DNA of 64,000 nt from Cenococcum geophilum. Lineage: Eukaryota. Of this stretch, positions 11,251-59,837 are shown piece by piece. The number at the start of each line of letters is the position of its first letter. Position 1 is the first letter of the stretch. The position numbers were made by a program, and so were the translations under genes. A model generated the notes under the pieces. It was not told the DNA's origin, did not search any database, and saw nothing but the letters and a program-made list of their open reading frames with translations. The stretch is from contig CP158635.1 of assembly GCA_050273025.1 (NCBI GenBank), positions 20,088,001 to 20,152,000 of the forward strand. Reading direction: 5' to 3'.

Positions 11251-11332
11251 ATAATATAAATATATTTTTAAAGGCATATTATAGCAATCTATGGCAATCT
11301 ATAGCAGTATATTATAATTTAGAGAAATATAT

Positions 11333-11608: not shown

Positions 11609-11665
11609 TGCGCGCTATTTATTTATAGGGTAGCAAAATGCTAGCATTAGTTTGGAAGTTAAGCG

Positions 11666-11795: not shown

Positions 11796-11857
11796 CCGCA
11801 ACAACCAGCCCCAAAAAAAATTTCCTAATATAACTATACGCAGATAGGTAATAAGTA

Positions 11858-26752: not shown

Positions 26753-27335
26753 CTATAGTGATGTAAGCGGATATTGCGGATATCTAATTCATTAATTTAT
26801 GTAACGCGTTATTATTACCACACGTAGTTATTTTTTTTTTTAAGACTTAGGGCTTTGAAATAGTATAAATGTTATTATACGGCTATTACTTAGTCCTAAT
26901 ATTAATTTCGTTAAAGTTAAAAAACGCATTATTAAAATTATAAGCATATATTATATTTTATTAAATAGTCTACTAATATAGATAAAACTATATAGATCTA
27001 TAAATATCTACTACTTAAAGTTATTGCAATACCTAGTAAATACTATAGTTAGGTCCTTCCTTAAAAATATCCTTTCTTAGCCTAAAGTGCCTCTACTACT
27101 ACTTGACGCTATATCTATATAAAAAACCTACTATAGCTTAGAAGAAAAGCACTAGTTATTAAAATTAGAAGACTATAGTTAAATAGGAATACTAGTAGGT
27201 CTTATAGAGTTTATAGAAGCTAGATAATTGTATATAGGAGAATTTTATATCCCTAGTAGAGAGGTAGTTATAGGATATATAAAATAAGCTTCTAGCCTTA
27301 TAGGAGGCAAGTAAAAATAAACAGTTAAGCTTAAT

Positions 27336-27606
27336 TGTATAATTATAGCACCTATTATACTAACCGCGTGCTTACGCGTTTGGTATACCAGGTACGCGTT
27401 TACGCGTTTAGTGTACTAACTACTCGCTTACGCGTCTAGTGCACTTATAAAGCACTAACTAATTAGGGGGGAGGTGTATTAGTATATAGACTACGTAGTC
27501 TGCTTTATATAATCGACAGTTACTATTATCTAAAAGAGTATACGATACTATACGTATTTCGTGCCCCTAGATTTAACTCACTTATGCTATTAAATTAGTA
27601 CGAATA
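27336..27606 (+). repeat. Copia 5' LTR
   Basis: tgtataattatagcacc...ttagtacgaata, direct repeat of 41905-42175. Confidence 0.95.
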
Positions 27607-30600
27607 CTGATTAGTAAGCGCGTATAGATTAGTAATTACTTAATACCTCCCCCTAAGCGATACTTAATAGCGACCACCCGTTTAGACTCCTAGTACGACT
27701 TACTAGAAGGTTAGAAGTTAGGGATTATAGACTTATCTCTAACTCTATATACTTATTTAAGTCTTAATATAGTTTACTAAAAGTATAATAAACGCGAATA
27801 TAGACCTATATAGAACCCCTACCCTTAAACCTTAAACCCCTATTCCTACTATACCTCTCTTAACCTCTTTTTAGACCCCTTATAGAGACCCTTTACCCTT
27901 TTATAAACCGTTACGGACCCGTTAATTACCTTTATAGACTGTTATAAAACCTTTTACTCTTCTGCGAACTATTATGGACTTACTAACCGCCTTTATAGAC
28001 TACTATAAGACCTCTTTTACCTACTATGTATTATACTATATAATATAGTATAGTAGACCTAAGAAAGCAAGTTAATAAAGGTTAGGAAAAGTAGAGGTAG
28101 GGAGTTAACCTTATGTCTATACCTAACGTTAATAACTATATTAAATTTAAAGTTCTTAAATATAAATATTTTAAGCTTATAAATGTTAACCTATAGGAGT
28201 AATACTAGGAAGACTTCGCGGACTTTACGGAAGCTATCTTTAAAGTATATAACCCTACTACTATCCGTAACCTACGGACCCTCTTACGTAACTAAGGTAT
28301 ATAGGTTAAAAGGAATAAATAAGTTACTGTTATATAATCCTTATATAACATAATATATAAAAAGGACTAAACGGAATAGACTAAAGAGGAAATCCTAGAC
28401 CAGTTCTAAGAAACTAAGGAACTCTTTACTTCTTCTAAACTTAATATAATTGCTAGCCTTATACCTAACCTACTTAACTAAATTCGTCCTATAAACCTAA
28501 GTAGTTTTAGAATTAATCTTATAGGCTAAAGTATACCTAGTACTTAAGTTACGGACTATAATACCCCCGTAAACCAAAATACGGACCAAATTACTTCTAT
28601 TATTTAAGTTATAGATCCGCAAGCCATATATCCGCAAACTATATATCTATAAGCTATATATCCGCAAGCTATAGATCTATAAGTTATAGATCTGCAACCC
28701 ACCTAAGTAAAGACCTATAGTAAGGAGCTAGCTAACCTAGCTAAGTTCTATACTAATAAATCTAAGTATAGTGGTAAAAATAATAACTTTAACTTTAAAC
28801 TAACCATCTTTATAGACCTCTGTTAGAAGGCTAATATTCCTAAATAGGAGTTTAGCTAAGCCTACTCTACTATACTACGCGGCCTAGTACTTAACTACTA
28901 CTACACTAACCTTAAGAGTAACCCCCTTAGTGTTCCCTTTAATAAGCTATGCGAAGCTACCCGTAACTACTTTAAAGAACTAAAATATAAGCGTAATATC
29001 CTTACCTAATAGAATGCGACTAAGCTATGGACTATAATTAATAAGAATATTAAAAAATCGACTATAGAGTGCCTGTAAATTCTTATTAAAGACCTCCGGC
29101 ACCTATAGTACGGCCTTAACGCTAAGCTTTAAATAGACGACTTTCTGTATAATAAACTTATTATGGCCTACTAAGAAGTAGAGCCCTATAAGTACGCCTA
29201 CTATAAGCCTATAGATATCTTAGCTAGCCTTATTAATAATCTACGCTCCTCTATTATAATGTATAAAGTCTTAAACCCACTAGGCAGTACTTAAGCCTTT
29301 ATTATGGATATTTAATATCCGTAAATAGACTTAGACGTCTACTTTATAGACCGCCGCTACCGCTAGTAGCACCTATACCAACTAAGTCCTACCTGTAACC
29401 CCTATAGCAACCCCTATATGAAAATATACCCCTATAGACAAACTAGCCAGAAGTGCTTTATATGCGGTAAAGAAGGATATTGGTCTATAAGGCATACCTA
29501 GAAAAAACGTAATAAGTTTAGGAAAAGACTTAATAGCTATATTAACTAGTTTATTTTAGAATATAAAGGAAAGGAAGTAGAAGAGCCCCCTAATAAGTTA
29601 ATAGAAGCCCTTATAATTGACTTTAACTTAAACGCTTAGGAATAAGAGACCTTAAAGATATTTTTAACTACTTTTGGACCTTTTACGGACAGCTAAGCCT
29701 TTAATATTACGACTATATTAGCTAACTGTTCCTTTATACACTTAATTACGCCTAAAAACTATTTTGTAAGTACCCCTATTATAGACGTTATAGATTATAA
29801 GTAGGACCTATTTATATATATTACTATAAAACGCTATACCCCTAAGGAATTTTACAGTGTTATAATCGATATAGGTGCCTTTAAGAAGTCTACTATAGGC
29901 TATAGATAATACCTTATATATAGGACCACTATAAATAACAATACGGATATTAATATTACGTAAACTAGGGCCGTAAACGTCTAATTCGGCATCAGCTTAA
30001 CCGTATTAATTAGATTAGTTAAAGTTAAAACTCTAATTAGCCTAGTTAACTTCTACGTAGTAAAAGCGGACACCCCCTTCCTACTCTATCTTATAGATAT
30101 GGATAGGTTATAGGTATATTATAATAATGTTACGGACACCCTAATTAGCCCTATAACTACCCTAGGAAGCAAGTATATTACCTTACTAATTATATAACAA
30201 TTTAGATACCCGTTCCTTATATAGGGAGAGACTTTATAGACCTATATTTAGGAATCTTTTGACTATAACCTATACTACCTTACTAGTACGGAAATCTACT
30301 ACCTATACCGCTGTTTCGGCCACCTGTTAGCTAAAAAAATATAGAGAGTCCTTAAACACTCTAGATATAATGACGTTAATAGGAAAATAATTAACCACCT
30401 AACTAAATACTGCTCCTTTTACTAGAAATACGGACGTTCCCTAGGCCGATTTAAGTTTACCCTTTATAAGGATCTTAATTTTAACCACTTAGTATACGTA
30501 GATATTATATATATTAACGGCAGCCTAGTATTATATATAATTAATAAGGTAACCCGCTACTAAGCCGCCTATTAGTTGTAAAATATATCTATAAAATATA

Positions 30601-31899
30601 CTTAGGATATTTTACGGACCTACTAGATTAATATATACCTTAGACCTCCTAAGTATATTACCTATAATGCTAGTAGGAACTTTATTAGTAAGGAATTCTA
30701 ATAGTATGCTATGGCCATAGCTATTTTAACAAAAGCTATTCTAGTTAAGGCGTACTAGTTTATTAGGCTTATTAAGTAAGCTTACCTAGCTCTATGGAGA
30801 GCTTACTAGATTATTATAGATAAGTATAAGGATATCTAAAAGGAACTAGCTTTACAGATGGCCGTAAAAGCCGTTAATAATACCGCTAGCCTTAACGGAT
30901 TAGTACCTACCCTCTTGGTTTATAAAGCCTATCTAAGAATAAGTAAACTAAACCCTCTTACCCCGTTTATTATAGACCGAGCAGCTATAATATAGAAGGT
31001 AATAGCCGAAATAGTTAAATTACGGCCCAAACAAACTACTAATAACGCCCTATACTACCGTAACGGACCTAACACAACCTTAGTTTATAACCTCCTACTT
31101 AATTCTAAAGTCCTTATATAGCGTAAGAGCGGCAACTAGACTGGACCTTATTGTCTACTAGCCGTAGAAAACGAGATATGCTATATATAGCTTTTTAGTA
31201 GGCTAACTAGCTTTAGAAGTACGTTTATAAAACCCTACTTTTAATCTAAAAACACTTATAATGTCGAGCTAGATAAACTAGAAGTACCTGCCGAATTAAA
31301 TAAACTAAAAGCACCCTTGCCTACCCTAGAGGTTCTCTAAAAACCTACTAAACCTACTAAACCTACCATAAAGCGTGGCTAAGGACGCCCCCGTAAGAAC
31401 CCCGTAATAGAGAATTACTTAACCTCTATAGGCATATCTATAAAGCAATCTCCGCCTATAAATATATTAGTTTTAGTATATAATTATAATTATAATATTT
31501 AATTACGCTATTGCGGCTCCCGTTAAGGTCCATGCAGCGGGTCTATATAGGTATATATATATATATATATAAGAGGGGAACCGTACCGCTAGGGCCGGAT
31601 AAAACCTCTCCTTCTCTTGTTATACGGCCTATATGGCTTATTATATGGCCTATATAGCCTCTCTTCTAATTAGTAACTACTAAGTACAAGTAAACGTCTC
31701 TTTAAGGCGCTATAGAAAAGCCATCTTAATACGTACTCCTAGGTTTATCTAGTGGGGTATATAGCTAGGGCCTAGGTTCCGTTCCTAGCTACTCTAGTTA
31801 TCTAGGTAAGGTATAAACCGGTAGCCTATAAGGCTAGTAGTAGTATAGAAGGTTCCGTTATTTATATCTGCATTAATATACGCAGCTCTATACCTTACT

Positions 31900-32230
31900 A
31901 AGTTTTATTAGGTTCTATTAAGATATTAACCTCTACTAAATTCTACCAGGTTACTAGATTCTATTAAATTTTATTAGGTTGCTAAAGTTCTACTAACTTC
32001 TATTAGGTTATTAGATTCTGCTAGGTTGCTAAGATTCTACCAAATTCTATTAGGTTGCTAGAACTCTGCTAAATTCTATTAGGTTGCTAAAATTCTGCTA
32101 ACTTCTATTAGGTTGCCAAATTCTACTAAATTCTGCTAGGTTAATAAGTTTTACCAAATTCTACTAGGTTACTAGAGTTCTGCCAACTTCTACTAGGTTG
32201 CTATTTGCAAAATTCTACTATATTTTACTA
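31900..32230. repeat. Imperfect tandem array of TTCTGCYARA/GGTTGCYAGA-like 9-10 bp units in the LINE-1 3' UTR
   Basis: Directly visible, with ~29-bp higher-order period. Confidence 0.85.
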
Positions 32231-32773
32231 TCCCTATAGTATTTATCCTCCGCCTCTTAAAGCACTTCCTAGCCTCTTTTTTTTACCCTAGCTAGCTCTC
32301 TAGCAAATAAAAGGTGTAGTAAGAGGTTTGTTTGCATAAACCAGTCCATAACTACTTTAGTAGCCTTTAGCTTAGTTAGGAGCTCTTTATATAAGGATAT
32401 TCTAGTATAGTAATATATTTCCGTCTAGCTAGTAGCGTATCTAGGGCAGAATACCACTATATACATTATTAATTATTAGCTATAGCCGCATAGGTTTTTT
32501 TTATTTTTTTATTTTTTTTTATATCCGTTGTATTATACTACGTACAATACTGCGCATGCAGCCTCTGGGCTATGGCGCTATAGTTCTATATACATAAATC
32601 CTTTCTAGGCAGCTTAATATGTACTAGTAGCTATGTCCTAGTAGTTTATAAACCCCTAAATTAGGAGTTTATAGTTTCTTAGTAAAAATACTAAAATACT
32701 ACAACTACTAGGGAATGAGAAAATGGTGAGAAAAACTGTAAGAAATCCTAACCCCCGTCCCTGTCCTTTTGCT

Positions 32774-33133
32774 CAGTGATGGCAATAATTAGTTAGTTAG
32801 TTACGATTATGTTATATTATATAGGAACATAACTAACCTAATCATAATCGCACCTGCTGATTATATTACGTAGATATAACTATATAATCAACCGCGGAAA
32901 TAGCGGAAATAAAAAGAGGGAGAGGTAGAGCTTTGGGGGAGAGCTCTAGGTAAGCTCTAGGCAAGTGTGTTATCTACACGTGAGTTTTCACGTGTAGATA
33001 ATATCACGTGGAAGCCCGTGCCTAAAAGATGTAATCAATGTAACTATATAACCAAATCAGAATCACTTTCTTTGATTATATAATAATCGGAATCATGGGG
33101 CTGATTATGGTTATATAGTTATTGCCATCACTA
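32774..33133. mobile_element. hAT-type MITE, 360 bp
   Basis: TIR cagtgatggcaataa / ttattgccatcacta; perfect 8-bp TSD CTTTTGCT (32766-32773, 33134-33141). Confidence 0.95.
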
Positions 33134-33203
33134 CTTTTGCTCTCTACTATCTTTTAACCTAAAAGCCTAGTAGGAGTTACCTCCTTCTAAACTCCTATTA
33201 ATT

Positions 33204-34589
33204 TTATTCTTCCATAGAATCTTCTACACCAGTACTATATACTAGTTTAGCTGCTCTAAGATTCTCGCAGTCTCTGCTATTAGCAAAGTGTTTTTCTTTA
33301 CAATTAATGCAAAGAGGGGTGGTATGCTTGCAAGGCCTGCCGCTTATTAAGCAGGTAGAACAGCAGTGGTCTTTAGATAGATATGCAGCCGCATAATATC
33401 TACAGGCCCTAGTAGAGCATCTGTCTCCTATATAGCCAAATTTTTGGCAGCTATTACACTGCGTAGTAGGAGAGACTTTGAGGTATTTTACTACCTTAGT
33501 AGCTGTACCTGCAATTGATATCTCTTTTTGCTTGAGGATTTCTTGTCTTTTTTCTTCGTTCTCTATAGTAAAAACTATAGAGCCAAATCTAGTCTATAGA
33601 TCGTGTCTTTTTACACTAGATGAGATCCATCTAGGTAGTCCTTATATCCTTATAGGATTAAAAGTCTCTATTTCTTCTTTTAGAAGCTTAGAGCCTCCTT
33701 CTCCTAAGAAAGGTAGGGTAGGAACCCTATGGGCTATAATTTGAACCCATGGTTCTAATTTTTGTTCTCTTTGAAAGGTAAAGCAGTTATGCCAGATTTC
33801 CTTATATTTGACTAGGAAATCTGCATTATACTCTTCCGTAGTCGTAAGGAGAATATTTTGTTTTCCTTTAGTTCTGGCTATAGATGCTAAAACCGGTTTT
33901 TCTACTTGCAGTTTTAATGCAAATAGTTAATTGACTTTGTTTCGTATAGAGAAGGTATCTAGAGGTTGGTCCTTTTGGTCTATAATTAGGACTAGCTTTC
34001 TTTCTTATAGCTGCTTTTTCTTACTTCTAGTAGAAGTAGAAGGAGTAGGAAATGGTAGTAACGAGGAGGGTAGAGAGGACGAAGTAGGGAGGTCCTTTTT
34101 TAGCCTCTCTGCGTAGGTTTCTTTAGTAGGGGCTACCTCCTTACGGAGAGCTCTTACTTCTTCAACTAGTCCTTTTAGGACATCTTTTGTCTTTTCTTTT
34201 CCTTTTATAAAGGGATTTTCTCCTACTAGGATACTACGTGTATAGTCCTCTAGCTGTTTAACTTGTTCCTTTTTGTCTTCTTCTTCTTCTTCTTCTAGCC
34301 CTTTATAGGCCTGGATTAGGCTATCTAGAGCCTTTTATAGGTGTTGTTTTGGAGAAAGGGGAGAGAAAGATATACTAGGTATACCAGCCGTGAAAGTCAT
34401 TAGTTTGGTTGTCTTTTTTGCAGGTTTTTAGTTTTCTTTTTTAGTAGAAGACTGAGGATGTCCTCTTTTTTCTCCTGTCCCAAATAGGCCAGGAGAAGGA
34501 GAAGGGCCAGAAAAGGTGAATGTAGATATAGACTCATTATCACTTATTTCTATAGGAGGTTTCTTTTTAGGCCTACCGGGCCTTGGCAT
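33204..34589 (-). pseudogene. LINE ORF1/gag-like zinc-knuckle protein, 461 codons, a few RIP stops
   Basis: MPRPGRPKKKP...TYAERLKK...WVQIIAHRVPT...PRWISS...GSIVFTI...TTQCNSCQKFGY...ACRYYAAAY...CSTC...CINCKEKHFANSRDCE; no frameshift. Confidence 0.88.
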
Positions 34590-37500
34590 TGTGTCTCTTA
34601 TAGGGGGGTTTTCCTAGTTTTTACTATCCTTATACCCTTTCTCCTTACTAATCCTACTAGAAGATTTCTGAGGAGATTAGGCTAAGAGGTAGTAGGGAAA
34701 CTAGCCCCTATTTTGTAGTTTTGGTATTAGTAGTATTGGTAGTAGTGGTAGTAGTTTTGGTGTTCCTGTCCGTACCTCGCTTATAAGCTAGGGCCACCTT
34801 TAAAGAAATTTTTTTGTTAGGAGAAAGGGGGTAAAACGACAAATAAATCCACCTCTAGCTCGCTAGGCAGTAGGAATTAGGTCTTAAAAGTTAGAAAATC
34901 GATTGTTTTTGATGGTAAGATGGGTATGCGTAAGTTTTGGAGTGTGGCGCTACCTTTTGGTAAGGTTGCATGTGTGGTGAAGCTTTTGTAGCCGCATAGG
35001 TAGGTTAGGGTTAGGTGCCCTAGTACTTTTTAGTAATAGAGGTATCTATTAAGCCCTATATACTTAGTTCTAAGCAGCATATTAATTATACTCTTTACCT
35101 TTATAAGCCTTACGTGGCGTTTAAAAACTTCCTTGTTTTATAGCTCGGCCTAGGCCGTTATATAGTAGGTAAATATACTCTAATACTTTTCCTATTCCCT
35201 TTTTTACCGCTTTTTAAACGCCTCTTATACCCTAGCCCTTCTACTTCTCTTATACTGCGCTTTAGATAGGTTTATTAGCCGTATATCTATCCCTAAAATA
35301 GCAACCGCTATCCTCTTAAGCTTATCCCATCTAGTGGGCCGTATTAGTAGCTTTATTCTAGGCTAGAGTTAGTAGGCTATCGTGGCCTATATAGTATTGC
35401 ACTCCCTCTTAATATACTCTCTTACCAGTCCTTCCCGTGTCCTTTTTGCGTAGGCTATAGCTAGCTCTTTAAGGTATATCTAAAGCGGCGGAAACCCCGT
35501 CTTATACTCTAGTACTACTATTAGCGTTAATTTATACGCCCCCGTAATAGTATAAAGGTATAGGTTCTATACTACGCCTAGCTAGCACAGCTTAGTTTTA
35601 CTTATCTTTTTAGGCTTTATCCACTCTGGTAGCAAGTACTAGATACTATATATATATAAAATTACCAGCCGGATTACGGCGGAGTATATTATCTGTGCCT
35701 TTTAGAAAGAAGCGCCCTATATAGAGGCCGTAAGCCGGGTTAGTATAGCTATTTAGGTAATCGCCTTCGTCTTAACGATATTAACGTATGGTCCCTATTT
35801 AAGCTTTAAGTTAACTTATACCCCTAATATATATAGGTTACTAACTAGGCCTTCTATAAAGCCATATATGTTAGCTATAGCCTTTATATTAAACTTCTTA
35901 TGGCTCCTTATAAAATAAATAAGGTGGTACTTTTTAGGGGTAAACACTACCCTATACCGGCGTGCCTATGCCATATATACCTTATACGCCCTTTCTATAG
36001 TTCTATAGTTTTCCTCCGTAGTCTTGCTATATATTAGTATATTAGAGTTATTAACAAATCTAAATACTATAGTGGTTCCCCCTTATAGCTCTAGTAGGAG
36101 TATATAGGCAAAAAAGAGGAATAGGATTGGCGATAGCGCTAAGCCTTAGGGTATACCGGTGTTCGTTTATATTATTTATACTATATATCCTCTAATTAAG
36201 AGCCTTATTATTTAATCCTTAAGGAAGGACTTTATAAACTGTACTATCCAGTAGGGTATGGCTTAGGCCTTTATATTATAGATTATTCTTTTATAGAAGA
36301 CTTGGTCGAAGGCCCTGGAAATATTAAGGCTAAGTAATAAGGCTACTAGGTTTAGGTTACTCCTCCACACTATATATACCTATTAGATTAGTAGCTCTAG
36401 TGCTATTTACATTAAGCGCCCCGGCCTTGCTCCTATTTAACTAGCTAGTAGTATACCCGTCTCCTCTATAATTTTAGATAATTAGCTGGCTACTATTCTC
36501 TTAAGTAGCTTCCCAATGGTATTAAGCAGCGCGATCGGCCGGTAGGCCTTTGCCGTGGTATAGGATAGCTTTTATAGTTTCTAAAGGACTACTATAATAA
36601 AGTCTTTAAACGGTTTTAGGTAATATCTAATTACTATATAGCTGCTAAAGAGTTTAGCCAGCACTAGGGCTAGCTACTCTCCGCACATCTTAAGGAATTA
36701 GTTAGTAATCTTCTTTAGACCTAAAGCCTTATTAGGGGCAAGCCCCTTTAGGGCCGTAATAATATCCTCCTTCTTAACTACTTCCTTTACTATTCGCGGC
36801 TCCAGGTATATAAACCCTAGTATATTATTAAGGTCCACCTCTACCAGCAGTAAGAAGAACTACTCTATAAGGATAGTGGCCTTTTCCTTATTATTATAGT
36901 ATAGGGTCTCCTCTCCTAGTCTGCTAATAGGAGGAAACTATAGTAGGGCCTTAGGCTTCCCGTCCGCTATACGCGCCTATTTTACTATCCTCTATATCCC
37001 TTTAGGGTTATTTATTAGCTTTTTAACAGTCCTCCTCTATAGCTTATTAGCCTCTTATTAGATTGCCCTTTTCTTCTTATTCTATACAACTCTATAGTTA
37101 ATCTAGTTAGGTATTAACTAAGAGACTTTCCACGCCTAGAAGGCCTGTTGGGTTTCCTTTACCACTTCTATATATTCCTCTAACTATACTTTAGAGGCTT
37201 ACGGCGAGGGCCACGCGTTAGGTACTATTTTTGCTATAGTGTTCTTAATCGCTTAGTATATAGCCTCTACTAATATATCTAGTTTATCTCTTATATCGCA
37301 CGGGAGTCTATATAGGGGCTAAAGTCGACCCTCTAGCTCGTTCTACACTACCTTCTAATTAGCCTTCTTCTATAGCGGTCTCCTAGGTAAAAAGGGCCCC
37401 TCTAACATCTCTACGTCTACCTCCGTAATAATAGGAAAGTGGTTAGACCCTATATACCAGCGGTCTTGTCTTTAACTCTATAGCAGCCTATTAGTAATTT

Positions 37501-40500: not shown

Positions 40501-41904
40501 AATAGACTAGACCTTTATAGACGCTAAAGAAACTAAACTATAAAAGGCTAAGTTCTTAGTAAAGCCGTAAGAGTAGTTAACTAAGTAGAATCTAATTAAG
40601 TTTAATAAAAGGGCAACCTAATTAAGCTGACTTAGGAACGCTAAGCTTAAAACCTAAAGCCTATTATAGCAAAGCTTACGGACCTTACTAGCTCCCGCGA
40701 AGAGACCTATAAAACTATAAATATAAAGGACTAATACGTTGCATAGCGTGTAAGAGGTGCCTATATTGCTATAGTCTGTTAACCTAAATCTACCTATAAT
40801 TTATCCTTTACGGCCTAGGCAGTAGATCTATAAGAAGAAAATATTAAGCAGCTTAATAAGCGTATTTAGTGGCAAATTGATAATACAGCAAGGGGACTTA
40901 CTTTTGTACCACTAGACCTAAGTTCTCTTAGCTTACTAGCATTTACGGACGCCTTCTTTGCTAATAATAAAGACCTATTATTATAAATTAGCTTTATAAT
41001 TGTACTTACGGACTATAATTAGGACGTAAATATACTATATTAGTCCTTAATTAAATGCAAATAAGTAACCCGCAGCGTGCTAGCTTCCAAACTATATATA
41101 CTAGCTTATAGCTTTAATATAGCAGCCGCAATTAAATTAACGGTCTAGAAGATTCTATAATTAAAGTAGTTACCCCTAGTTTTATATATTAATTTAAAGT
41201 CCCTCTATAACTGCCTAGTTAAACTAGGTATAATATAAGAGAAGAGGCTTATAATTAACCTAATATGCTTATATTAGGCCTATAAATAACGTGAAATTAT
41301 AAAGGTTAAATAAATTAGCGGCGGAAATAATTTAGTAGACGCTATAACTAAGGCAAAGCCGTGTTAAGCCCTTAAAACCCTAATTAATATAAATAGGCTT
41401 AACCTAAAAGTTATAAAATGGGTAGAATGGGACTAATAGAGTACCTATAGTACGCCTATAGCCTATTAAAAGGCCGTATAGCTTATTATACGGCCTATTC
41501 TACAGACCGTAAGCTATTAGGTAAAAAATGGTGGAGAGCTATAATAGAACTTAGTGGACTTACATAACCTACTAAATTCTGCTATATTCTGCCACGGTAG
41601 TTAAATCCACTAATTATAATTTTCTATGCCAGGTACAGAAAATTGCTATTAGCTTGCTTAGCACTAGCGCCTTAGCAGCCCTTAAGATCTGACTTATAGC
41701 TTATTTACTGCCTATTAAAAGGCTATACGGTTTATTTTATAGACCGTAAGTAGAACTTACGGCTAGCTTAGGGCACCGTTTAAAAGGTAGCCTAAACGGC
41801 ACCTTAGGGGAGATTTTCTATATATTTTCCTTTGTATTTTATAGTTTTATTAAAGCAATTACGGAGGCTGTATATAGGTAGTTTCATTTTTTAAGTACTG
41901 CTAG

Positions 41905-42175
41905 TGTATAATTATAGCACCTGTTATACTAACTGCGTGCTTATACATTCGGTACACCAGGTACGCGTTTACGCGTTTAGTATACTAACCACTTACTTAC
42001 ATGTCTAGTGCACTTATAAAGCACTAACTAATTAGGGGGGAGGTGTATTAGTATATAGACTACGTAGTCTGCTTTATATAATTAATAGTTACCATTATCT
42101 AAAAGAGCATACGATACTATATATATTTCATGCCCCTAGATCTAACTCACTCGTGCTATTAAATTAGTACGAACA
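41905..42175 (+). repeat. Copia 3' LTR
   Basis: tgtataattatagcacc...ttagtacgaaca followed by TSD ttaat. Confidence 0.95.
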
Positions 42176-42561
42176 TTAATAGATAGAGCTATTAAGCTTC
42201 TATATCTATATAGCAGACAACCCAGTTAAATTAAAGTATTAAGACGGGTAATATATAGGTAGAGGGACTTATTCCTAGTAGTAAAGACATTATAGAATAA
42301 GAGTATAATAATATAGGCAATTCCATTACTAATTTAAGCTTTTATTATTATTATTATTATTATATTATCTTTAAACATAATTAGAGAGGAGCAGCTATTA
42401 AAGATATAGGTAATTTTAGAAGTAAATCCCGTATTTATATATATAGAGGTAATAAAAGCGTATATAGATATCCTAAAATATATTAAGGCGGGTTAGTTTA
42501 CGCATATTTTAGTATTACTAGAGTTACTATTAAGTAAACGGTTCTACTATATCCTTATTTA

Positions 42562-48112: not shown

Positions 48113-51017
48113 TATATCCTTATTTAGCCCTTTTTTCGCTTATATATTTTCTTAGTTATAATTAGTAAGTATTATCTAGTTGCTAACTAGGGTAAAAGCT
48201 TCCGGCCCTATTATATATAGCTCTTTAAGGTCTAGTTACTACTTAGTCTAATAGTACTATAGTTTATATATACTGTAATACTTAATAAGGAGACGTATAT
48301 AAAGGTAATAAAGCTAGTAGGGTTTTCTTAAAGTATAACGGATCTTAAATAAATAAATATTAATTGGCCTAACCTATTTATTATTAGGGACTATATTAAG
48401 AGGAGGGATAAGAACGATTACAAGGCACTATTCTTTATTATTAAAGAGGTATTTAAGGAGGTAGTAATAGAGGAGGATTATACATCCGTAATCCTTAATT
48501 AGATATTTATAAGGTTTAGTAAAATATCTATATTATTTAGCTAAACGCCTATAGCGCCTAATAGGATATTTATATCTTTTAGTTAAATATCTACTACCTC
48601 TATTTATTAATTAGCTGGGTAGATCTAAAATCTAGTAGGAGGTACTATATAGCTAGAGGGACGAAAGGTTCTAAGTCCTAAATTAATTCCTAAATAATTA
48701 TCTTTCTTTATACTAAAATCTATATCTATAAGTATATAAATACTATCTATTCGTGGCCTATAACTAAGGGCTATACTATTAAGTAGGCTAAAATAGCAGT
48801 GCGGAGTTATTATGCGATATTATCTAAATATAATAAGAGTAAGGAGCATTAAAATTTCTATATAGAAGACTTACTTACCTATATTCTTATTATATTAGAT
48901 GCCCTAGCCTATAGTACGGATATTCTAGATATTATCTATTCTATTATATATAGTTATTATCCTAATAAAAGCCTAAATATAATACTGCAGCGATTTAGAT
49001 AGGCTGCCGAATGTAATAGTATTATCGGATATATAATTATCCTTATTAAAGACTGGTATAAGGGCGCTCTTATAAATATTACACCACTAAAGTAAAAGCC
49101 TTAAAAACCTATAGCCCCTCTATCTACCCGACTTAGCTATAACTTTATTACTACTAGGATAGCAATATAGGAAGATAGGGTAGCGGATTTCGCCAGTGAT
49201 TTAGTTTTATTCGTTATAATTAATAGTAATATTATTTCGCAGGTATTTACTTAGAAGGAGGAGGATTAAATACTTAATAAGAATATAATATTATTAGTCC
49301 TGCTAATTAAGTATATAGAAAAACAGAAGAGGGTAAAGACTAATATAGAGAAACAGGTGGTACTTCTAGATATATTATATAAGCTTGTAAATAAAGCTAC
49401 TAAATATTTATATAATATTCTACTTAAGCTATATAAGGAGATAAGTCCATTATCCGGAGGTTTATACTATTACTCTAATTGCAATAATTTGTTGCAAGCT
49501 TATAAGGAGTATAATATTATTATACTATATACTAGAAATATTACGAAAAGCAAATACTTAAAGAATCTATTTATAAGTATTAAGAAGTAGATTAAAGGAT
49601 GGCTTAATATAATATACTAGGATATAGTTTAGAGTTTAATTTCTAGTTATATTATATAAGATACTAGTACTAAAGTATTACGTTTCTTCCTTATAAATAA
49701 AGCGGATAAGTATATCTACTTTATTTTCTAGGAAGCTATAATCCTATTTAGGCAATATCCGCTTAAAGCCTTTATAAATTAGTAGAGGTTAGATATAGAG
49801 TATATAGATTTAATTATTAAATAGGCTGCGTTGCAATCTAATAGACGTATTACTATATCTAGAAGCTTATTACAAATACCTCTACTATTAGTAGGTTAAT
49901 AGGGACCTCTTAGTGTATTAACTATAAAAAGTGCTAGCCTTAATGAACCGTTATAAACCGAAGTGTTACCGCCCTTATAGCTATTATTAGTATCTAGCTT
50001 GTAAATGGATATAACTAAGTCTTAAATATTTTAGCTTATATTAACCTAAGACTTATAGATAAACTGGTCCTAGACTATATATACTACTCTATTACAGTTA
50101 TTTTAATAGCTGGATATTTAATATCTATATACTATAGATATACGGCTACCTGCTTAAAAATTATCTAGTATATATTTATAGTACCCTTAAATTAACCTTT
50201 AGTATCCTAATAACTCCCTATAGTACCTCTATTATTCTTAATAACCTTTTAATATCACTTTATACAAATTTTATAATTCTTTACTACCTTAGTTTATATC
50301 TTAGAATAACCTAGGTATTAGTTTACGGTATAGCCTTTAAGCTCTACAGTAGAGGTCTAATAGTATTGTTAGCTCGAATATAGGTAGCGCTAGTTTATAG
50401 TATAATGTTTAATCTCCGCAGCGATCTCTATATACGGTTATTATAAATTAATATAGCCTTGTTAATAATCCTGCAAGTAATAGTCTATTATTAGTAGCAA
50501 TCTATAGTAATTTCGTATTAACGGCGACGGCAAACTACCGTATTATAGTACCCTCTATAGTAACTTAGCAGTAGGATACTAGAAGGGAATTAGCCTATAT
50601 AGCGGGTATGGACGGATATCTACAGAGTTAGTGTAATAATTTAGTAGCTTATCAATTAACCTAGGCTTATCGCTTATAGCGGCTTTTAAATAGTTCGTCC
50701 GATTAGTTATATATTAGTGCTTAATAACCGTATACTTTGCCTAGTGGCTTACTGGTATAGTTAAAAAGCTTATCCTAATATATAGACTTACGGGCTAATA
50801 TATTAACCACTATAGAGTTAGCTCCCTTCTAGCTAGTAGAATTAATTAAAGGTAAATTTAGCACTTATTGCCGCTCTACTTAAGTAAGAAGTACTACCTC
50901 TACTTATATAGCTAGTGCTAATATAACTCTAAGCTAGTCTCTTTAGCCAATCCTCCCCTCTAGTACTACACTAGCTAGTAGTATAACCTTAAAAAAGACG
51001 TAGAGATGTCTATTTAC

Positions 51018-54000
51018 TATTAGCGACTCAGTCAATCAAGACATAAGTACGGTAAAAGGGTCGCGCAAGCCTATATAATTGGATTGTCTATAAACGAGAA
51101 TCTAAAGCTAAAGAAAGGAAAGGAGAAGAAGGGGAGCGCCGCTCGAAGCTATATACGATCTTCGCGTCACGTGACCGCAATATGCGGCAATCTGTAGCAA
51201 CTTGGCGGTGCGTAGTTCTGCTAAGTTCTGCTAGTGCCGTAACATTACCCCCTCCTCCAAAAAAGCCTGCCCTTAGGCTTTGCCGCTAAAAGTCTTAGTA
51301 AGAGAATCTAACTAATTAGACAACTTTAACCGCCGGTCGAAGTTCCTGGATATCTTAACACCTTATATAACTAAGAAATTTCTGGGGTGTTTTTGTCCTT
51401 ATATTCTTCTAGTAGCTTATCGTCTTTATTATACTAGCATTCTATCCACTTATCTAGGTACTTTAGCGGTCCGGGTTTATTAGGGTAACGGCTATAGAAC
51501 TCCTAAAGCTTATAGGGGCTACCTATAAAGTTCTATATAGGGTACTAAGTGGGGTCTAGGTTATATCCTTTCCAACTAATATAATACTTTAACGTTCCCT
51601 TTACAAGTTTACAGGCCAGTATTTCTTTAATTTCCCATTTATTATCGTCGTTAACTTAAATTAGCAGGGGAGGTTTATTCTTTTATTTAGGCAGTAGATT
51701 ATTTACAGCTTTTTATAGCTTATCCGGTAAGAAGATAGGGTGGACTTTAATTAAGTCTAGGAGCTTAACCTTATACGAATTGCCTACTTTATTAAGAATC
51801 TTATACGGTCCTACTATCTTATAGTTTAGCTTATAGCTAGGCCGTTCTATCTTTTAGTTCTTTATCGTGACCTAGACTATATCGCCTACAGTAAAATCAG
51901 GTTTGCGCCTATGCTTATTTACCTACTATTCCATTAATTTCTAGGCCTTTTTTAGGTTCGTACAGGCTACTTTCTAGGCTTCTTCTAAGCGCTTAGCGTA
52001 CTGCTAGGCTTCCTTATAAGATAGTTTTTCGCGTATAGTCTAGGGCCCTTCTAGTCTTTCCTAGTTAAAGCTTATGCGGGGTAGGTAACCCATTTCTAGT
52101 TAAATAGGGGCAAATCCGGTAGAGTTATGGGGTAGGGTTGCTTAGGCGTAGTCTATTAAGGGTAACAGTTCGGCTTAATTATCCTAAAAATAGTTAATAA
52201 AAGGCCGGAGCCTCTAGTCTAAGTATTAATTTACAATCTTCGTTTAACCGTCTGTCTGGGGGTAATATGCCGTAAAAAGCTTTAGCTTAATACCTAGGAT
52301 CTAGGTAAACTTATTCTAAAAGGCTAATATAAACTACGGCCCGCGGTTAGATATAATAGTGTCTAGTAGTCTATAAATTTAGTAGACGTAGTAAATATAT
52401 AGTCGGGCTGCCTCTTTAGCATTAATATTTTTATAATAGGGAATTAAGAACGGGCGCTTGCCAAAGCGGTTAACTAGGATTATAACCATATTATATCCAT
52501 TACGGTCTAGAGGAAGCTTATAAAAGTCTATAGAGATATATTACTAGGGGCGGTTAGGTATTAGGAGGGGTTTTAATAGTCCTAGGGTCTTATTTTATGG
52601 GATTATAGACCTATAGTAGTTGTTACAGTTCTGTATATAGCGGTCGATATCTATAACTATTCTGGGCCAGTAGTAGCAGTCGCTAATAATCCTACGGGTT
52701 TTATTCTTTCTAGGGTAGGCCATAGAGACCTAGGTATATGCTTTAGCAATAAGCCAAGTCCGTAAGTTCTATTCCTTTACCACTACTAGCCGTTCCTAAT
52801 ACTTAAGTAATCCATTTTTAAGGGACCATAGGCTAGTAACGTTTTTTGCCTTTTTATAGTACTCTTGTAAAGAAGGGGCCGTATAGTTTATCTACAGCAA
52901 TTCGTTAATTAAGTTAAGTCCTAAAGGGTTAATAGGATACATCTCGGCGCCCAAGGAGTCTGTACTTAGTTCTGCCTATATCTAGGGGTTAAGGTACTCT
53001 AGTTATAGTAGCGTCTAGGTCCGTAATAAGATCTTCACAGCCATATAGTTACCTAGGTCTTATTTACGCCTAGTAAAAGCATCCGCACAGTTCGTAGCGC
53101 CTAGTCTATATATAATTAAGAAGTTAAACTAAGATAGGATATCCGCCTAGCGTGCCTGCCGGGCCGTAAGGGCCTTAGTTATTATAAAGTATTCTAGGGC
53201 CTTATAATTTAATACTACTTTAATAGGTTTAGGGGTCCCCTCTAGCTGGGCACGCCAGTGCTAAAAGCTAGAGATAATAGCCAGCATTTCTTTATTATAA
53301 ATATAGTAGTTCAGTTTAGCATCTATTATAGTCTTTAAATAGTATATAATAGGGTGCCATTCTCCGTCCGGTTGCTTCTGGGAAAAAACACTGGCTATTA
53401 CACTGTTTAAGGCATTAGTTTCTAGCATTAAGGGCCGTTCTAGGTTAAAGTAGGCAAGTAGGGGGGCCGACACTAGCCGTTTTTTAAGCTTATTAAAGGC
53501 CTGCATATATATGGCGTTAAAGTAAAAGGGCTAGTCTTTCCTAGTAAGGCAGTTAAGAGGCTAGGCAATCCTGCTATAGTTCTTAATAAAGTATTAGTAG
53601 AAGTTACAGAAACCTAAAAATAATTACACCCCCTTTACGGTCCGTAGGGGCGTCCACTAATTAATTGCGGTCGTTTTCTCTAGGTTAGCCTTAATTCCGT
53701 CTGTGCTGATAATAAAACCTAAGTACTTTATACGCTTAATACTAAATTCCAACTTCTTAATATTAGCCTAGAGGCCAGCTTCGTAGAGCCGTTATAGGAC
53801 TTTATAGACGTGCTCCTTATATTCTAGTTCGTTCTCTAAGTAAATTATAATATTATCTAGATAGCCCATATAGAAGTCGTTAAGGTAGTTAAAGAGTACA
53901 TTATTTATATACCGCTAGTACGTAGCTAGTCCGTTAGTTAGTCTAAAAGGAAGTACTTTATATTTATACGTCCCGTAATAGGTCCGGAATATAGTAAAAT

Positions 54001-57000
54001 CCTTAAACCTAGGGTTTATCCTAATTCAGTAAAAGGCCTAGCGGATATTAAGCTTTATAAAAACCTTAGCTCTACTTATTTAGGTAAGAGTTTTATTAAG
54101 TAAGGGTAGCGGGTAGCGGGTAGCGGTCCTTGCGGGTTATATTATTTAGCTTATAGTAGTTAATACAGAAGCGCAGTCCTCTATTTAGCTTTTTAATAAA
54201 AAGAATAGGTAAGTTAAAAGGGGCTTGGCTAGGCTCAATAAAGCCCTTATTTAGGTTATCAATAAGGTACTACTTTATGGCCTATAATTCAGCGATAGAC
54301 TATAGGTAGAGAGGGCTAAAGCTAAGGGTGCTTCCCTTGTCTTGCTCAATCTCGATCTTATAGTTATATAGTCAGTAGGGTAAAAGCATATTAGACGCTG
54401 CCTTAGAGAATACGTCCTTAAATTTCCGGTATTAATCAGGCAGTTTTTGCTCCACTAGTTCTTTATCCGTAAGCCCGCTTTCCTATCTACTAAGCTCGCT
54501 TTCCTTTTCCTTAATTATTTAGTTAATTTTGTATAGGCTAGTTATAAAGGTAACGGTATTAGGCTGGACTAGGTTCTAGTAGAATCCTACAGCGCTAATA
54601 CAGCAGATATTAACTAGTAGAAGGTCCATAGGTTTCTTTAGCGTTAGTTAGGCTGTGGTTTACAGTATAGGGTTTATAGTCTTCCTCAGCTTACGTTCTA
54701 TTTTCTATAAGTTATCCTTCCTATCTATTAGTTTAGTGTGGCGTCTAATATCCCTGACTTTCCTTTATAGCTTTATAGGGTTCTCTATAGAGAACTTAGC
54801 TAGGTTACTACCGACTTCCTAGGTCTTTAGTACGGGTGGCGTAATATAGGTAGTCTAAGGGCGGCGTAGTATACGGATCCGTTGCGGGTTAAGCTATACG
54901 TCCTTCTTAAAGGCCTAGTCTCTGCGCATAGCATCGGCCTAGTAAATGGTATTAATTTAGGGCCGTATGAGGTTTTCTATTATAATGCTGATTTCTTTTA
55001 TAAAGGAAGGGGTTAGGGGTAGAGTTTTAGGCTAGATAAGCCATCTACTCCGTACTTCGAGCTGCAAGCCTAAATAGGCTAGCTATTTTCTTCCTAAGAT
55101 TATATTATAGCTTCCTAAGTCCATAATAAGAAAGGGGATATTATACTACCTTCGTCCGTTAACACGGAGGTAGATCCGCAAGATAGTTGTAATAGGTGGC
55201 CCTATCCGTCCATTATAACCGCGAATAGGGATTAGTTTAGGCAGTTCTTTAAGGGGTGCATTTAAAAAGTCAGCTAGTTTTACAGCGTACTTTATATTAA
55301 TTAAGGTAAAGGTATTTACTCCTAAGTTAGCTAAAGCAGAGGTTAAAACTTAATATTTATTACGAAATAAAGTATAAGGGATAGTATAGCTTTTTCTACT
55401 AACTAGCCAACCCAGATTAATATATAATATATTAATCCCTTTTAACCTTAGAGAGGAGTCTTCCTCTAGGGTTCCTCTTTTTCTAGCTCTATACTATCCT
55501 CCTAAATTAACAGGACCTTATTTATCCTTACCTTTATTAGGCAGTTCCTTATAGGGTAGCCTATTTAACCACACAAAAAGCAAGCTCCTTAATCGCTAAG
55601 GGCCTATATACAGGGGTCGCTGTATATAGGCTAGGTATACACCAGGCCCATAGTAGGGGTAGCTACGCGGCTAGCTATTAGGTTAGCTATAGGAGTTGCC
55701 AATTATACTAGGGCACTACGGGCCGTACTTATAGTACTTATGGCCTAGTTTATAAGGTTTCTAGTTTTTAGCTAGTTAGCGCGTGCCTTAATTTAATAGA
55801 GGCCTTAATTAATAGCTAGGCAATAGTCCGTAAGTTCCTTTAACGTCTATGCTATAGTATAAGCTGGTAATACAGCCCGCTATAGGTCTAGGGTAAGCTT
55901 ATTAAAGAGGTCTAATAGTAGGTCTTCTTAGGGGATCTAGGCCTATCTAGCCAGGTATAGAAAGCGGGTTTAAAAGGCCAAAAAGGTCTCCATTATTTTT
56001 TATATTTAGGCTTTTATAGCTAAGGCGGGCGTTCTATACTTTAAAAGGGTCTTTATAAATAGAAGACAAGTATTTAATTATTTCTTCTTTAGAGATAAAG
56101 GGGTTTACTAAGTCTTTAGTGTATTACGGGCGTAAATACGTCTGGACGTCTTCGCCAGTACGGCCGAAGATGTAGGCCATTCTGGCTCGGGCGTTAGGGA
56201 AGTAGTCTATATTAACTTTAAGCTTGTCCTATAATTAAAGCTTCTAATTATTAAATATAGGGTCGGTTCTATCTGTAAGTAGTAGGGGGTCCGCGACCTT
56301 TACTGACCGCTTCGGTGCTATATAGGCCTTAATAGATCTACTAAGGCGCTAGAATAGGGCCTAAAGGACTATAGTAAGTCTTTAGTTGTCTAATAATGAC
56401 TTATTATTAGATATAGGGGTATCTCTAGCTTTAAACAGCTCTCACAATTGTTTAATTTCGGCATTAGCAGCCGCAAGCTCCGCCTAGGGGGTTGAAACGT
56501 TAATTATTTCTTTATCTGAAGTATTTAAGGGTTCTACAGCTGCTTTACCCGCTGCTATAGTTCGTGGCATAGTGGTAGGGGTATTAGGTAATTCCGGGTA
56601 ATTTCTTTAGGGGTTCTGGTCTGTGCGTGTCTTATAGGTCCTTTCCTTAGGGTTTTGTTCTTTTCTTTTAGATCCTGTCCTTGTGGTCCTAGTGATATCC
56701 TTAGGGTCCTATTCTATGTTCTTATAGATATATTTAAGTTCCTTCTTAGGAAGAAAGAGTAGAGTGAGCTTTAGATAATATTAGCGACTTAGTTAATCAA
56801 GATATAAGCACGGTAAAAGGGTCGCGCAAGCCTGTATAATTGGATTGTCTATAAACAAGAATCTAAAGCTAAAGAAAGGAAAGGAGAAGAAGGGGAGCGC
56901 CGCTCGAAGCTATATACGATCTTCGCGTCACGTGACCGCAATATGCGGCAATCTATAGCAACTTGCCGGTGCGTAGTTCTGCCAAGTTCTGCTAGTGCCG

Positions 57001-57005
57001 TAACA
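51018..57005 (-). mobile_element. Ty3/Gypsy chromovirus LTR retrotransposon, full length, RIP-degraded
   Basis: 227-bp LTRs (51018-51244, 56779-57005), TSD TTTAC, PPT rc ggaggagggggtaa. RT YKVLPFRLTNG, YLDNIIIY; RNase H ETNAL, NYYIYNKEMLAII; integrase; chromodomain WEIKEIL...WKGY at ~51500-51640. Confidence 0.96.
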
Positions 57006-57058
57006 TTTACTAATATTAGTGGCAATATAAGTATAAATAAGCTATAGCCAAAACGCCG

Positions 57059-57720
57059 GATATTAGAGCTTGTAGCGCAGCATTAGGTCTTAGCCCTTAG
57101 AGCAATCTAGATATTAAAACTCACAGCGTAGTATTGGATCTTAGCCCTTAGAGCAATCCAGATATTAAAGCTTATAGTATAGTATTAAATTTAAATCCTT
57201 AGGGTAGCCTAAGTGTTAAAGCTTATAGTGCACAAATAAGTCTTAACTTTTAGACAAGCTTAAGGTTTAATATTTATAATATAGCACTAAATCTCCAATT
57301 ACAAAAAATTCTAAAGTTTAATATCTATGGCGTAGTACTAGTTCCTAGGTAGTAGGAAATCCGGAAATTTAGAATTTATAATATAGTATTAGATCTCCAC
57401 TCCTAGAAAATCCTAAGGCTTAGAATTTAAGTTATAATACTAGATCTCCGCTCTTAGGAAGGTCTAAGGCTTAGGGTTTATAGGCTAATACTTAATCCCC
57501 ACTCTCTAAACCAGGTGCGGTTTAGAATTCGCGTACTAATTCTTAATCTCCGCTTTCTAAATTAGGTACGGCTTAGAATTTATAGTTTAATATTTAATCT
57601 CCACTTTCTAAACTAAGTGTAGCTTAAAACCTATAGCCTAGTGCTTAATCTCCGCCCTTAGTTTTAGATATAGCGTAGCTTTAGTAGGTTAGTATTTAAT
57701 ATTCCTTAGCATTCCGCACG
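57059..57720 (+). repeat. 51-bp (17-codon) tandem repeat, about 13 diverging units
   Basis: gatattagagcttgtagcgcagcattaggtcttagcccttagagcaatcta then gatattaaaactcacagcgtagtattggatcttagcccttagagcaatcca, and so on. Confidence 0.85.
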
Positions 57721-58329
57721 TTTATTAACTTAATTAAGACTTAGGCAGAGCTCTAATTAGTATTTAAATAGTCTATTAGATTCTTATTTAGAGAGATATT
57801 AAGGTTTATATCTAAAGCTTTTAAAACCTATAAAACCTCTATTATATTAACTATTTAGTTTAAGTATCTTATAATCCTCCTAACTAAATATTATTTATTC
57901 TTCTTAAGCTACTATACCTTAAGCCTCTTAGCTAATATTAGATCTACCTTATAGTAAGAAAAAAAACAAAAGAATATGTTTATACACTTTAAAAGTAAGA
58001 AATCCACTTATAACCCTTTTCCAGCACCTTAATTAAGCGGTAATTCTATATTAATATTACTTTGTAAATTAACCAGACGGCGCCTACTTACGTTAATTAG
58101 TAATAACTTAACTATAAAGGATTTGCGCATTACAAATAAGCATATATAAGGTAGCTAATATTTACTAAGGTAAGTTACTATAATAGTAATTATTTATTAG
58201 TACGCTAATTTAATAAAATCTATAACGTAAATATTTACTTTTAATTAACCTCCATACCTTTTACCTTATAGCATTATACTGTAAACTTTATTATTGTTGT
58301 TTTATCTGCTGTCCATTAGTATACTACTA

Positions 58330-59837
58330 TCCATAAAACCTTTTTTTTATACCCCTAAATACATCTAATAGCCATTTAGTTAAGAAACTTAATACGCGTA
58401 ATATTAACGATAAAATAATTAAGGACGCTTTTAAGGACGCTCTTTCTTTTACTAATTGTTTAGAATCTCTACTTAGAGGGTAAGCTTCTAATACTAAATT
58501 ATGCCTATAGCTAATATAAATTTAGGAAATATATACTAAAGCACTCTTTATTAGATTTAGTAGAGTACTATAATAAGGTTATTACGAAATCTACTAGAAA
58601 TCCACTTACCTCTTCACAGTCTATTTCTTTATCACCTACTACTTTTAAAAGGTTTAATACTTATTATACTTCTACTTCTCTTAAGAAGCAGGCTAATAGA
58701 ATTACTGCGTAAAATATTTAGTATAAGATAGCCTTTAAATCGTATATATTAACTATACTCTTTTAGTATCTTCTCTACTAATTTACCTCTTATAGTAGCC
58801 TAATAGAAATATTAGAGATTTTAGATAATAATAAAGAGAATAATTTTAATAACGCCGACTCTCCTAAAAGCCCTTCTTTATCCCTTTATAATCTCCGCAG
58901 CCCTTATAAGCTCTATAGTATATAAATAGCCTAAGCTATAGTATTGGATATTAATATAAATAAGCGCCTTTCTATTTAAGTGCCGTTAGTAAATAAATAG
59001 TATACCCTAAAAGCTAGGGCTTGGGAGAATATAAAGGAAACTTACTAATAGATATATACCTACGTCTAGAATATTAAGGATAGCTTTAGTATACTGCGCG
59101 ATTTATTATACGCTCTATATATAAAGCAAGACTATAAATATCGCGTTTATAAGCAGAACTCTAGGCTATATTTTAGAGGTACGTGCTTAAGATATCGCTT
59201 AAATAGTAGGTTATGTAAAAAGGCATATACTAATAGTATACTAATATTTTATTAGCTAACACGTATATAGGATAGTTTATTAAGACTAGAGCTAGTTATA
59301 CATTAGTATAAAAAACATACGTAATTAGCTTCTGTTAGTAATCTAGCTAGAACGCCTACTAAAAAGATATAATATCCGTATAGCTTTATACCCGCATTAT
59401 CCCCCCTTTAGAGGCCTCCCCTTCCCCTAAAACTCTTATTTATAGCGATATACGCAGCTATAGGGGCACCCATTTTACCGCTACTTTTTTTTAAAACTTT
59501 TTTACTAATTCCTAGTACGCCTAGTACTATATCTAGTACTACTACCACTTTTATTAATATGGAAAATATTAGGGTATATTTAGCAATTGCTATTTCTATA
59601 CGCGTTAATATAGTCTATAAATAGGTAATTAAGATAGTAAAAAACGTTCGGGCTATAGATCGCCAGTTAAGTAAGCTTAAATATTCTCTAAGTAAGATAA
59701 AAGATAAGCTTACGTTTATAAGGTATAGTATTATAGCACTTATATACAACGCCAGGTTACTAAATATAGAGTTTAAGTAAATACTGGTTAGCTATTACTG
59801 CGGGTTAACTATTATTACGGGTTTAAAGTAATAAAAT
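58330..59837 (+). pseudogene. Degenerate, probably spliced ORF(s) of unknown function, cut by the second gypsy
   Basis: Intron-like gtaagc..gctaat..ttag at ~58480-58525; acidic stretch at ~58800-58860; coiled-coil-like VRAIDRQLSKLKYSLSKIKDKLTFI..YNARL near 59650-59760. Confidence 0.35.

Follow-up and report, generated by a model that had tools for sequence, protein, structure and literature searches.

The window analysed here is a 64,000-nucleotide stretch of the Cenococcum geophilum genome (contig CP158635.1, positions 20,088,001 to 20,152,000), in which an initial annotation, made from the letters, had described a helicase-carrying DNA element. The source genome comprises 178 Mb in seven contigs. 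The window holds a gene island between AT-rich blocks with strong indices resembling those of repeat-induced point mutation (RIP), and the helicase element lies in the right-hand block, where a single stop-free frame of at least 120 amino acids is present. We conclude, with a high degree of confidence, that the locus is a dead copy, with both ends lost, of an 11-12 kb cut-and-paste transposon of the AcademH type, residing in a RIP-active ascomycete. The family to which it belongs has 20-bp terminal inverted repeats (TIRs), target site duplications (TSDs) of 9 and rarely 10 bp, a RecQ-like helicase at one end, a convergent DUF6589 transposase at the other and a duplicated, spliced Cys6 gene in the middle.

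The window copy spans positions 26764 to ca. 92,456 (coordinates above 64000 are extended window coordinates, past the window edge) and lacks both TIRs. It is broken up by a nest of a long terminal repeat (LTR) retrotransposon, a long interspersed nuclear element (LINE), two Gypsy-type nests and further inserts. The first piece (26764..27335, plus strand; element nt ~127-696) contains GCGGATAT repeats, the 5' non-coding region and the start of the helicase gene; the 20-bp TIR and the first ~126 nt of the element are deleted. It is followed by a nested LTR retrotransposon (27336..42175, plus strand, TSD TTAAT), whose integrase and reverse transcriptase region was judged by reading to be of Copia type, and which itself contains a nested LINE and other repeats. 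The second piece (42176..42561, plus strand) encodes RIP-damaged helicase motifs Q/0, I, Ia and Ib, and is separated by a LINE with endonuclease and reverse transcriptase (42562..48112, plus strand, 12-14 bp TSD (TA)TATCCTTATTTA) from the third piece (48113..51017, plus strand), with helicase motifs II-VI, a Zn cluster and a low-complexity C-terminal extension. A Gypsy-type LTR retrotransposon (51018..57005, minus strand, TSD TTTAC) precedes piece 4a (57006..58329, plus strand), where the helicase frame ends (at ~57134) and 51-nt repeats are found (57059-57605), and piece 4b (58330..59837, plus strand, ends approximate), which holds copy 1 of the accessory gene. The initial annotation had the element reach 59837, which is only where the next LTR insertion begins: the start of a further Gypsy-type nest (59838..64000, plus strand) that runs to ~78,582 (TSD AAAAT). 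Past the window edge, further pieces were located at 78583-79536, 82515-84382 and 89935-92456; the first two hold accessory gene copy 2. The DUF6589 transposase gene (~84,041-92,272, minus strand) converges on the helicase gene and was out of sight of the initial annotation, which had found no transposase. The element's final ~60 nt and second TIR are gone. That annotation had correctly described the nested inserts as TSD-bounded, and TSDs were read for the nested LTR, LINE and Gypsy-type inserts.

The damage to the window copy was assessed against L139, an intact family member from a metagenome with a helicase frame of 1190 amino acids, which also served as the mapping reference. C>T and G>A account for 2202 of the 2454 differences, and changes affect 82% of the CpA sites and 56% of the CpG sites, matching the pattern of RIP.

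Ends of the family and the junction at 26756

All 20 copies fetched from the genome extend ca. 127 bp beyond the end of the window copy, to a 20-bp TIR, TTACCTCAGCGAGCTCAGAC. An inverted TTACCTCAGCGAGCTCAGAC closes all 14 copies that were extended (those without large early inserts), at lengths of 11.0-13.1 kb. TSDs of these two-ended copies were 9 bp in 12 cases (six exact, six with 1-2 transition differences), 10 bp in one case and unclear in one; none was 8 bp. Defining both ends and the TSD length, a check suggested by the initial annotation, thus gave the 9-10 bp predicted for AcademH and never 8 bp. The TIR pattern had 859 matches in the genome versus none in a control, and none of the matches lies inside the window copy. 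Folding of seven ends from three families as single-stranded DNA gave, in each case, a long stem that begins within the TIR (-20 to -37 kcal/mol, calculated without a shuffle control). At one site (L030 and L061, G000:C5:10617587-10637200), two copies of the family face each other tail to tail in inverted orientation, with 24 bp between them. Another locus (L063, at 14540-16300 in the joined coordinates of L035) is an internal deletion derivative: it retains the left TIR plus ~470 bp of the left and ~360 bp of the right end, together with a tandem-repeat filler. The number of TIR matches (859) suggests that many non-autonomous copies of this kind exist.

The initial annotation had taken 26756 for the element's terminus. 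The window sequence there is TAGTGATGTAAGCGGATATTGCGGATAT, and an 8-nt junction, TAGTGATG (26756..26763, plus strand), unique to the window copy, joins a miniature inverted-repeat transposable element (MITE) cut at 26755 to the AcademH end cut at element nt ~127. A genome search with positions 26700-27340, in which 40 of 417 candidates were scored, returned 40 non-self matches, which all start at window positions 26764-26771 and are distributed over internal sites of all seven contigs. The hAT-like (CAGTGATG-like) junction pattern had one match in 178 Mb, the window locus itself; a reversed control also had one. A hAT terminus as the end of the element is ruled out by the longer common end of the 20 copies and the single occurrence of the junction. 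TAGTGATG is somewhat more likely to be a hAT tip left over after a deletion than chance filler.

Of its two readings, the initial annotation considered a hAT-ended cargo element the unusual one, and it named as refuting evidence that other copies of the helicase lack the hAT-like terminus; they do lack it. We consider it very unlikely that the helicase is cargo of a large hAT-ended element, or that a hAT element once held a whole AcademH copy and left the window locus as its deletion derivative. The eight junction nucleotides do match a real hAT TIR family of the source genome, that of fungal CAGTGATG-ended elements. One AcademH copy (L034) is located within a CAGTGATG-ended repeat, with a hAT-type end, CAGTGATGGCAATA, 416 bp upstream, and three of the 20 copies (L033, L034 and L044) occupy one target site within a repeat, L033 and L044 with the same TSD. 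However, a hAT end is missing upstream of two of these three loci, and none of them gave a pair of hAT ends with a TSD. At the window locus, neither a partner CATCACTG end with the expected TSD nor a remainder of the MITE was found within 22 kb downstream of the copy. The TSD of hAT elements is 8 bp, a length seen in none of the 14 copies; the family has another TIR, with no CAGTGATG-type TIR at both element ends, and no hAT domain of Pfam was found in the element proteins.

Intact relatives and the encoded proteins

A genome search for DUF6589, in which 102 of 274 candidates were scored, gave at least 102 matches, eight of them without stops. Seven of the intact copies make up family A (L090, L092, L095, L096, L099, L100 and L102; e.g., G000:C2:18686149-18692591): 6.44-kb elements, 99.9-100% identical, with a transposase, a helicase and a related TIR, each at its own site with its own 9-bp TSD, and free of RIP damage. 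Family A is a recent burst, and is possibly still active. Element B is a single intact element of 10.9 kb (L104/L105, G000:C5:796833-807719) with a 9-bp TSD and a TIR that is nearly that of the window family; its insertion site is in a RIP-damaged copy of family A, immediately inward of the left TIR. The central 5 kb of element B and the window family are 87-90% identical at the DNA level, much closer than the transposase (57% protein identity) and the helicase (43%), which suggests that modules may have been exchanged between them. In metagenomes, 42 of 79 transposase loci had a helicase match, which was downstream and convergent in 40. Outside the four richest samples, a convergent helicase was present in 13 of 25 loci, and 11 of the other 12 are on contigs that end no more than ca. 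1 kb from the match. Named protein relatives come from Penicillium, Fusarium, Dactylonectria, Ascosphaera and Aspergillus.

The transposase matched DUF6589, its sole match in Pfam, with E values of 2.6e-43 for copy L074, 2.3e-17 for the continuation of the window copy and 9.6e-73 for intact L139. An AlphaFold model was made for the intact transposase of element B from a 58-row alignment (predicted local distance difference test score, pLDDT, 86). Its nearest Foldseek match was Hermes (E 4.5e-4), a further point of likeness to the hAT superfamily, and DDE integrases and transposases filled its top 31 VIA rows (best Z 9.6, root-mean-square deviation (rmsd) 3.6, 133 residues aligned; for Hermes, Z 9.5, rmsd 9.6, 294 aligned). 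Conserved residues are D38 (28/28), D198 (56/57), H233 (57/58), D475 and E479 (58/58 each). As modelled, the transposase is a DDE enzyme with an RNase H-like fold. A sequence-based comparison of its profile with the PDB gave unrelated proteins only, at a best E of 0.025. The Academ hidden Markov model (HMM; supplement of PMC5751038) has 465 states; in the 56 that were compared by eye, the consensus d-q ... w-l-v-p ... g-f-f-H lined up with GDQKT ... WVLPVPGLWH of the transposase.

The AcademH lineage of the Academ DNA transposon superfamily was reportedly defined by Kojima in 2020. An Academ-like element was the other reading of the initial annotation, and it is supported by the TSDs, the DUF6589 transposase with Academ-like motifs and the convergent RecQ helicase. 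Like AcademH elements, for which PMC10045372 gives TSDs of 9-10 bp, the family combines TIRs with a DDE transposase and a RecQ-like helicase. Unlike AcademH in Ascomycota, described as low-copy elements in PMC10799480, it is present in high copy number, judging by the DUF6589 and TIR matches (at least 102 and 859, respectively). It also has a duplicated five-exon Cys6 gene, ends that can form hairpins and a GCGGATAT word throughout its length, none of which was found for AcademH in the literature searched, to which the defining paper did not belong.

The element might also belong, with its helicase, to a different DDE superfamily, either a Mutator/MULE-like one with 9-bp TSDs or, among fungal elements, KolobokH. 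The TSD length and a DDE fold whose helical insertion domain resembles those of Hermes, the P element and ISCth4 speak for this, and KolobokH encodes RecQ in fungi (PMC9587614). We nevertheless regard this as highly improbable: the transposase matches DUF6589 and no other Pfam family, its motifs match the Academ HMM where compared, no MULE match was found in Pfam at E 0.05 for three intact transposases, and Kolobok TSDs, given in PMC9587614 as 4-bp TTAA, were not seen among the copies of the family. A Starship, considered because the ends begin with TTAC, a Starship target word, was ruled out by the true 20-bp TIRs, the 9-bp TSD and the DDE transposase.

The window helicase, mapped against L139, starts at 27133, 377 bp inside 26756, and its motifs lie on the plus strand at 42281 (I), 42356 (Ia), 42512 (Ib), 48158 (II), 48269 (III), 48697 (IV), 48892 (V) and 48988 (VI), followed by the Zn cluster at 49402-49485. 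The RecQ-type helicase of the initial annotation, with motifs I to VI and a Zn cluster and a start ca. 400 bp inside the end, is thus confirmed. None of four RIP-damaged helicase pieces had a match in a Pfam scan; for the window alone the count was 0 of 3, because its pieces are too mutated, and intact relatives had to be used instead. The intact helicases of L139, family A and element B matched DEAD and Helicase_C, those of L139 and B also weakly RecQ_Zn_bind, and none matched DUF3505, RQC or HRDC. The best PDB matches of the element B helicase were WRN, RecQ, RECQL5 and BLM. A helicase phylogeny, which the initial annotation had called for, was built with FastTree from 48 sequences (three of 42 search hits were omitted as partial or fused); it places all nine element-linked helicases on one side of a long branch with support of 1.0, apart from cellular RecQ rows, in a tree without TLH and fungal Sgs1 sequences.

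Telomere-linked helicases (TLH) are defined by a subtelomeric position and an N-terminal DUF3505 domain. That the window helicase is such a TLH/Y'-type gene, or a host RecQ gene caught among repeats, is extremely unlikely: it has RecQ motifs, and multicopy low-GC subtelomeric RecQ families are described for fungi in PMC4522978, but the copies are internal on all seven contigs, the 14 extended ones are bounded by TIRs, DUF3505, RQC and HRDC are not matched, and the fully supported branch separates the element-linked helicases from the cellular RecQ rows of that tree.

The 51-nt repeats at 57059-57605 correspond to in-frame tail repeats of the helicase in intact element B. A segment of ca. 1.2 kb (49823-51017) is found only in a long variant of the family (in full in four of 14 copies, and also in the window copy and L139), where it extends the helicase frame and ends it ahead of the 51-nt repeats. 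The helicase gene of the window copy also contains a 169-bp inversion (49655-49823). In transcriptome data, RNA joints over the helicase of element B read GT..AG on the opposite strand, i.e., antisense. Four such joints, from three metatranscriptomes, mark a spliced antisense transcript at L107:6571-7909.

Between the helicase and the transposase are two tandem units of ca. 1.95 kb, each a five-exon gene in element B, with products of 444 and 450 amino acids and introns of 47, 54, 48 and 49 nt. In element B, these genes have an exon with the pattern C-x2-C-x6-C-x11-C-x2-C-x6-C and a coiled-coil-like end. The Cys6 exon of copy 1 in the window lies at 58782-59266 (plus strand), and the C-terminal coiled-coil-like exon is also within 58330..59837. 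The initial annotation had seen unknown open reading frames (ORFs) behind the helicase. Mapped on element B, their first part belongs to the helicase tail repeats; what follows does hold a gene of its own, the Cys6 accessory copy. The accessory proteins had weak matches only in Pfam, to Zn_clus (E 0.002 and 0.015) and DUF3716 (E 0.043), and an Atlas search with the Cys6 exon retrieved DUF3716 clusters at 0.85-0.88, below 0.9 and therefore a lead only. When four of 24 RNA runs were aligned to element B, joints were recovered at all four predicted introns of the helicase-side unit. Reads and contigs over this unit differ by several percent from element B and are thus derived from copies related to it. 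The transposase and helicase regions are covered by spliced contigs that are identical to B.

In the literature searched on AcademH, DUF6589, DUF3716 and the dispersed motif, neither an accessory gene nor a motif was found for Academ elements; the paper that defines AcademH lay outside that search and may describe either. Two DUF3716 accessory genes are carried by REP9 of Zymoseptoria tritici (PMC8232023). REP9, which is IS3EU-like, resembles the present family in being a fungal TIR transposon with two accessory genes, with the likeness to DUF3716 being a lead only in our case. It differs in its integrase-like transposase and 6-bp TSD, and the main text of PMC8232023 does not contain the word helicase.

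The element-wide word and a possible mechanism

The GCGGATAT repeats, described as subterminal by the initial annotation, are indeed present at the element end, but are not confined to it: the word covers the whole length of the element, including coding sequence. Counts of GCGGATA/TATCCGC were 30 in family A, 32 in element B and 40 in the window-family consensus, with 0.8, 2.0 and 2.8 expected, respectively, and the occurrences are spread over the whole length in both orientations. In nine coding pieces of intact elements, CGGATAT occurred 71 times, covering all six settings of frame and strand; the expectation from synonymous shuffles was 10.8, with a maximum of 21 among 1000. A host ORF had one occurrence versus 0.4 expected. 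Across Academ copies (206 kb), GCGGATAT was enriched 18.5-fold. Its interpretation as a signal of repeats in general or of the host was rejected, the enrichment being 1.6-fold in 132 kb of other RIP-damaged flank and 1.3-fold in 77 kb of undamaged flank. So was its interpretation as a general feature of AcademH: eight of nine more distant loci have no comparable word. The ninth, L174, has a related word and a tblastn match to the Cys6 exon; the strict Cys6 pattern was not found there. Local protection from RIP was rejected as well, since damage was not lower at or near motifs in 14 dead copies of family C and 22 of family B (per-site p 0.10-0.87), and CpA damage was flat with distance from the motif. 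Five 15-nt repeats inside the nested LTR element (28610-28699) also include some with the Academ word TATCCGCA.

Several of these results weigh against the AcademH reading or parts of it. The structural scores are modest, with a Foldseek E of 4.5e-4 and VIA Z values of 9.4-9.6 tied among integrases, Hermes and the P element. The assignment to Academ is an unscored comparison by eye with parts of one HMM. A 9-bp TSD also fits MULEs. Given the eight distant relatives without it, the motif is dispensable for AcademH transposition in general, and family A has the word at a locus where the Cys6 pattern was not found in the sequence read.

With AcademH as the preferred reading, the transposase would bind the TIRs, excise the element and insert it with a 9-nt staggered cut. 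The helicase would unwind or remodel the ends, each of which can form a long hairpin once single-stranded, or the strand-transfer intermediate; we think that this role is somewhat favoured. An element-encoded DNA-binding protein, either the N-terminus of the transposase or the Cys6 protein, may recognise (T/G)GCGGATAT words, and such recognition would mark the element for expression or mobilisation. The enrichment makes GCGGATAT a reasonably good candidate for a binding site of an element protein, and Zn2Cys6 proteins bind CGG words. We offer only tentatively, as a rather doubtful extension, that selection wrote (T/G)GCGGATAT into the whole element, including codons in all six settings of frame and strand, and that the duplicated, DUF3716-like Cys6 protein binds the word. 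It would do so in trans as well, on family A, which lacks Cys6, and thereby maintain expression or mobility of the element in a host that silences it.

If so, fungi would have a counterpart to VANDAL/VANC, and DUF3716 would for the first time be given a function. VANC of the Arabidopsis VANDAL elements is an anti-silencing accessory protein, and its motif shows enrichment in no family but its own (PMC5735166). Both systems combine an accessory protein encoded by the transposon with a short family-specific motif; the VANC motifs, however, form non-coding tandem arrays, whereas (T/G)GCGGATAT is dispersed, occurs in both orientations and also lies within coding sequence. The likeness is one of sequence, and RIP damage is no lower near GCGGATAT motifs.

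The window locus itself is ordinary transposon debris. Intact members of the group (the seven near-identical family-A copies, element B with its RNA support, and L139) make the role of the AcademH helicase, and DUF6589 as a candidate Academ transposase, directly testable. An 8-letter word enriched along the whole element, including coding sequence, points to a further recognition step and, should the accessory Cys6 protein read that word, to a new kind of transposon self-recognition in fungi.

Neighbouring features of the locus

To the left of the helicase element lies the host gene island, ca. 11 kb long (~14.1-26 kb of the window). At 14340-25300 it contains a GH18 chitinase exon (PF00704, E 1e-16), a 1296-amino-acid low-complexity ORF on the minus strand (17770-21660) and short exons that, by reading only, resemble mitochondrial complex subunits. 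The hAT TIR CAGTGATGCAA, which the initial annotation had placed at 14142, is a real hAT-type end. It belongs to a separate element outside the helicase element (CAGTGATGCAACTGG, 14128..14142, minus strand), and its partner end lies 27.8 kb upstream, at G000:C1:20074354, with an 8-bp TSD, CCTAGCTG. Window positions 1-14142 make up the right half of this hAT-type element, which is 27.8 kb long and probably holds nested inserts. Ends of the CAGTGATG type in the source genome had 8-bp TSDs in all eight pairs, which were chosen by eye among the first 100 of 163 listed matches.

The immediate left neighbour of the helicase element, and outside it, is the long-TIR MITE (25920..26755), truncated on its right side at ...CCTGCTA, with a second MITE nested inside (26401-26741). 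A hAT-type MITE of 360 bp (32774-33133), with CAGTGATGGCAATA ends and an 8-bp TSD, CTTTTGCT, is nested in the LTR insert. The Gypsy-type elements at 51018-57005 and 59838-64000 are related and lie in opposite orientation, forming a large inverted repeat with ca. 73-89% identity over several kb.

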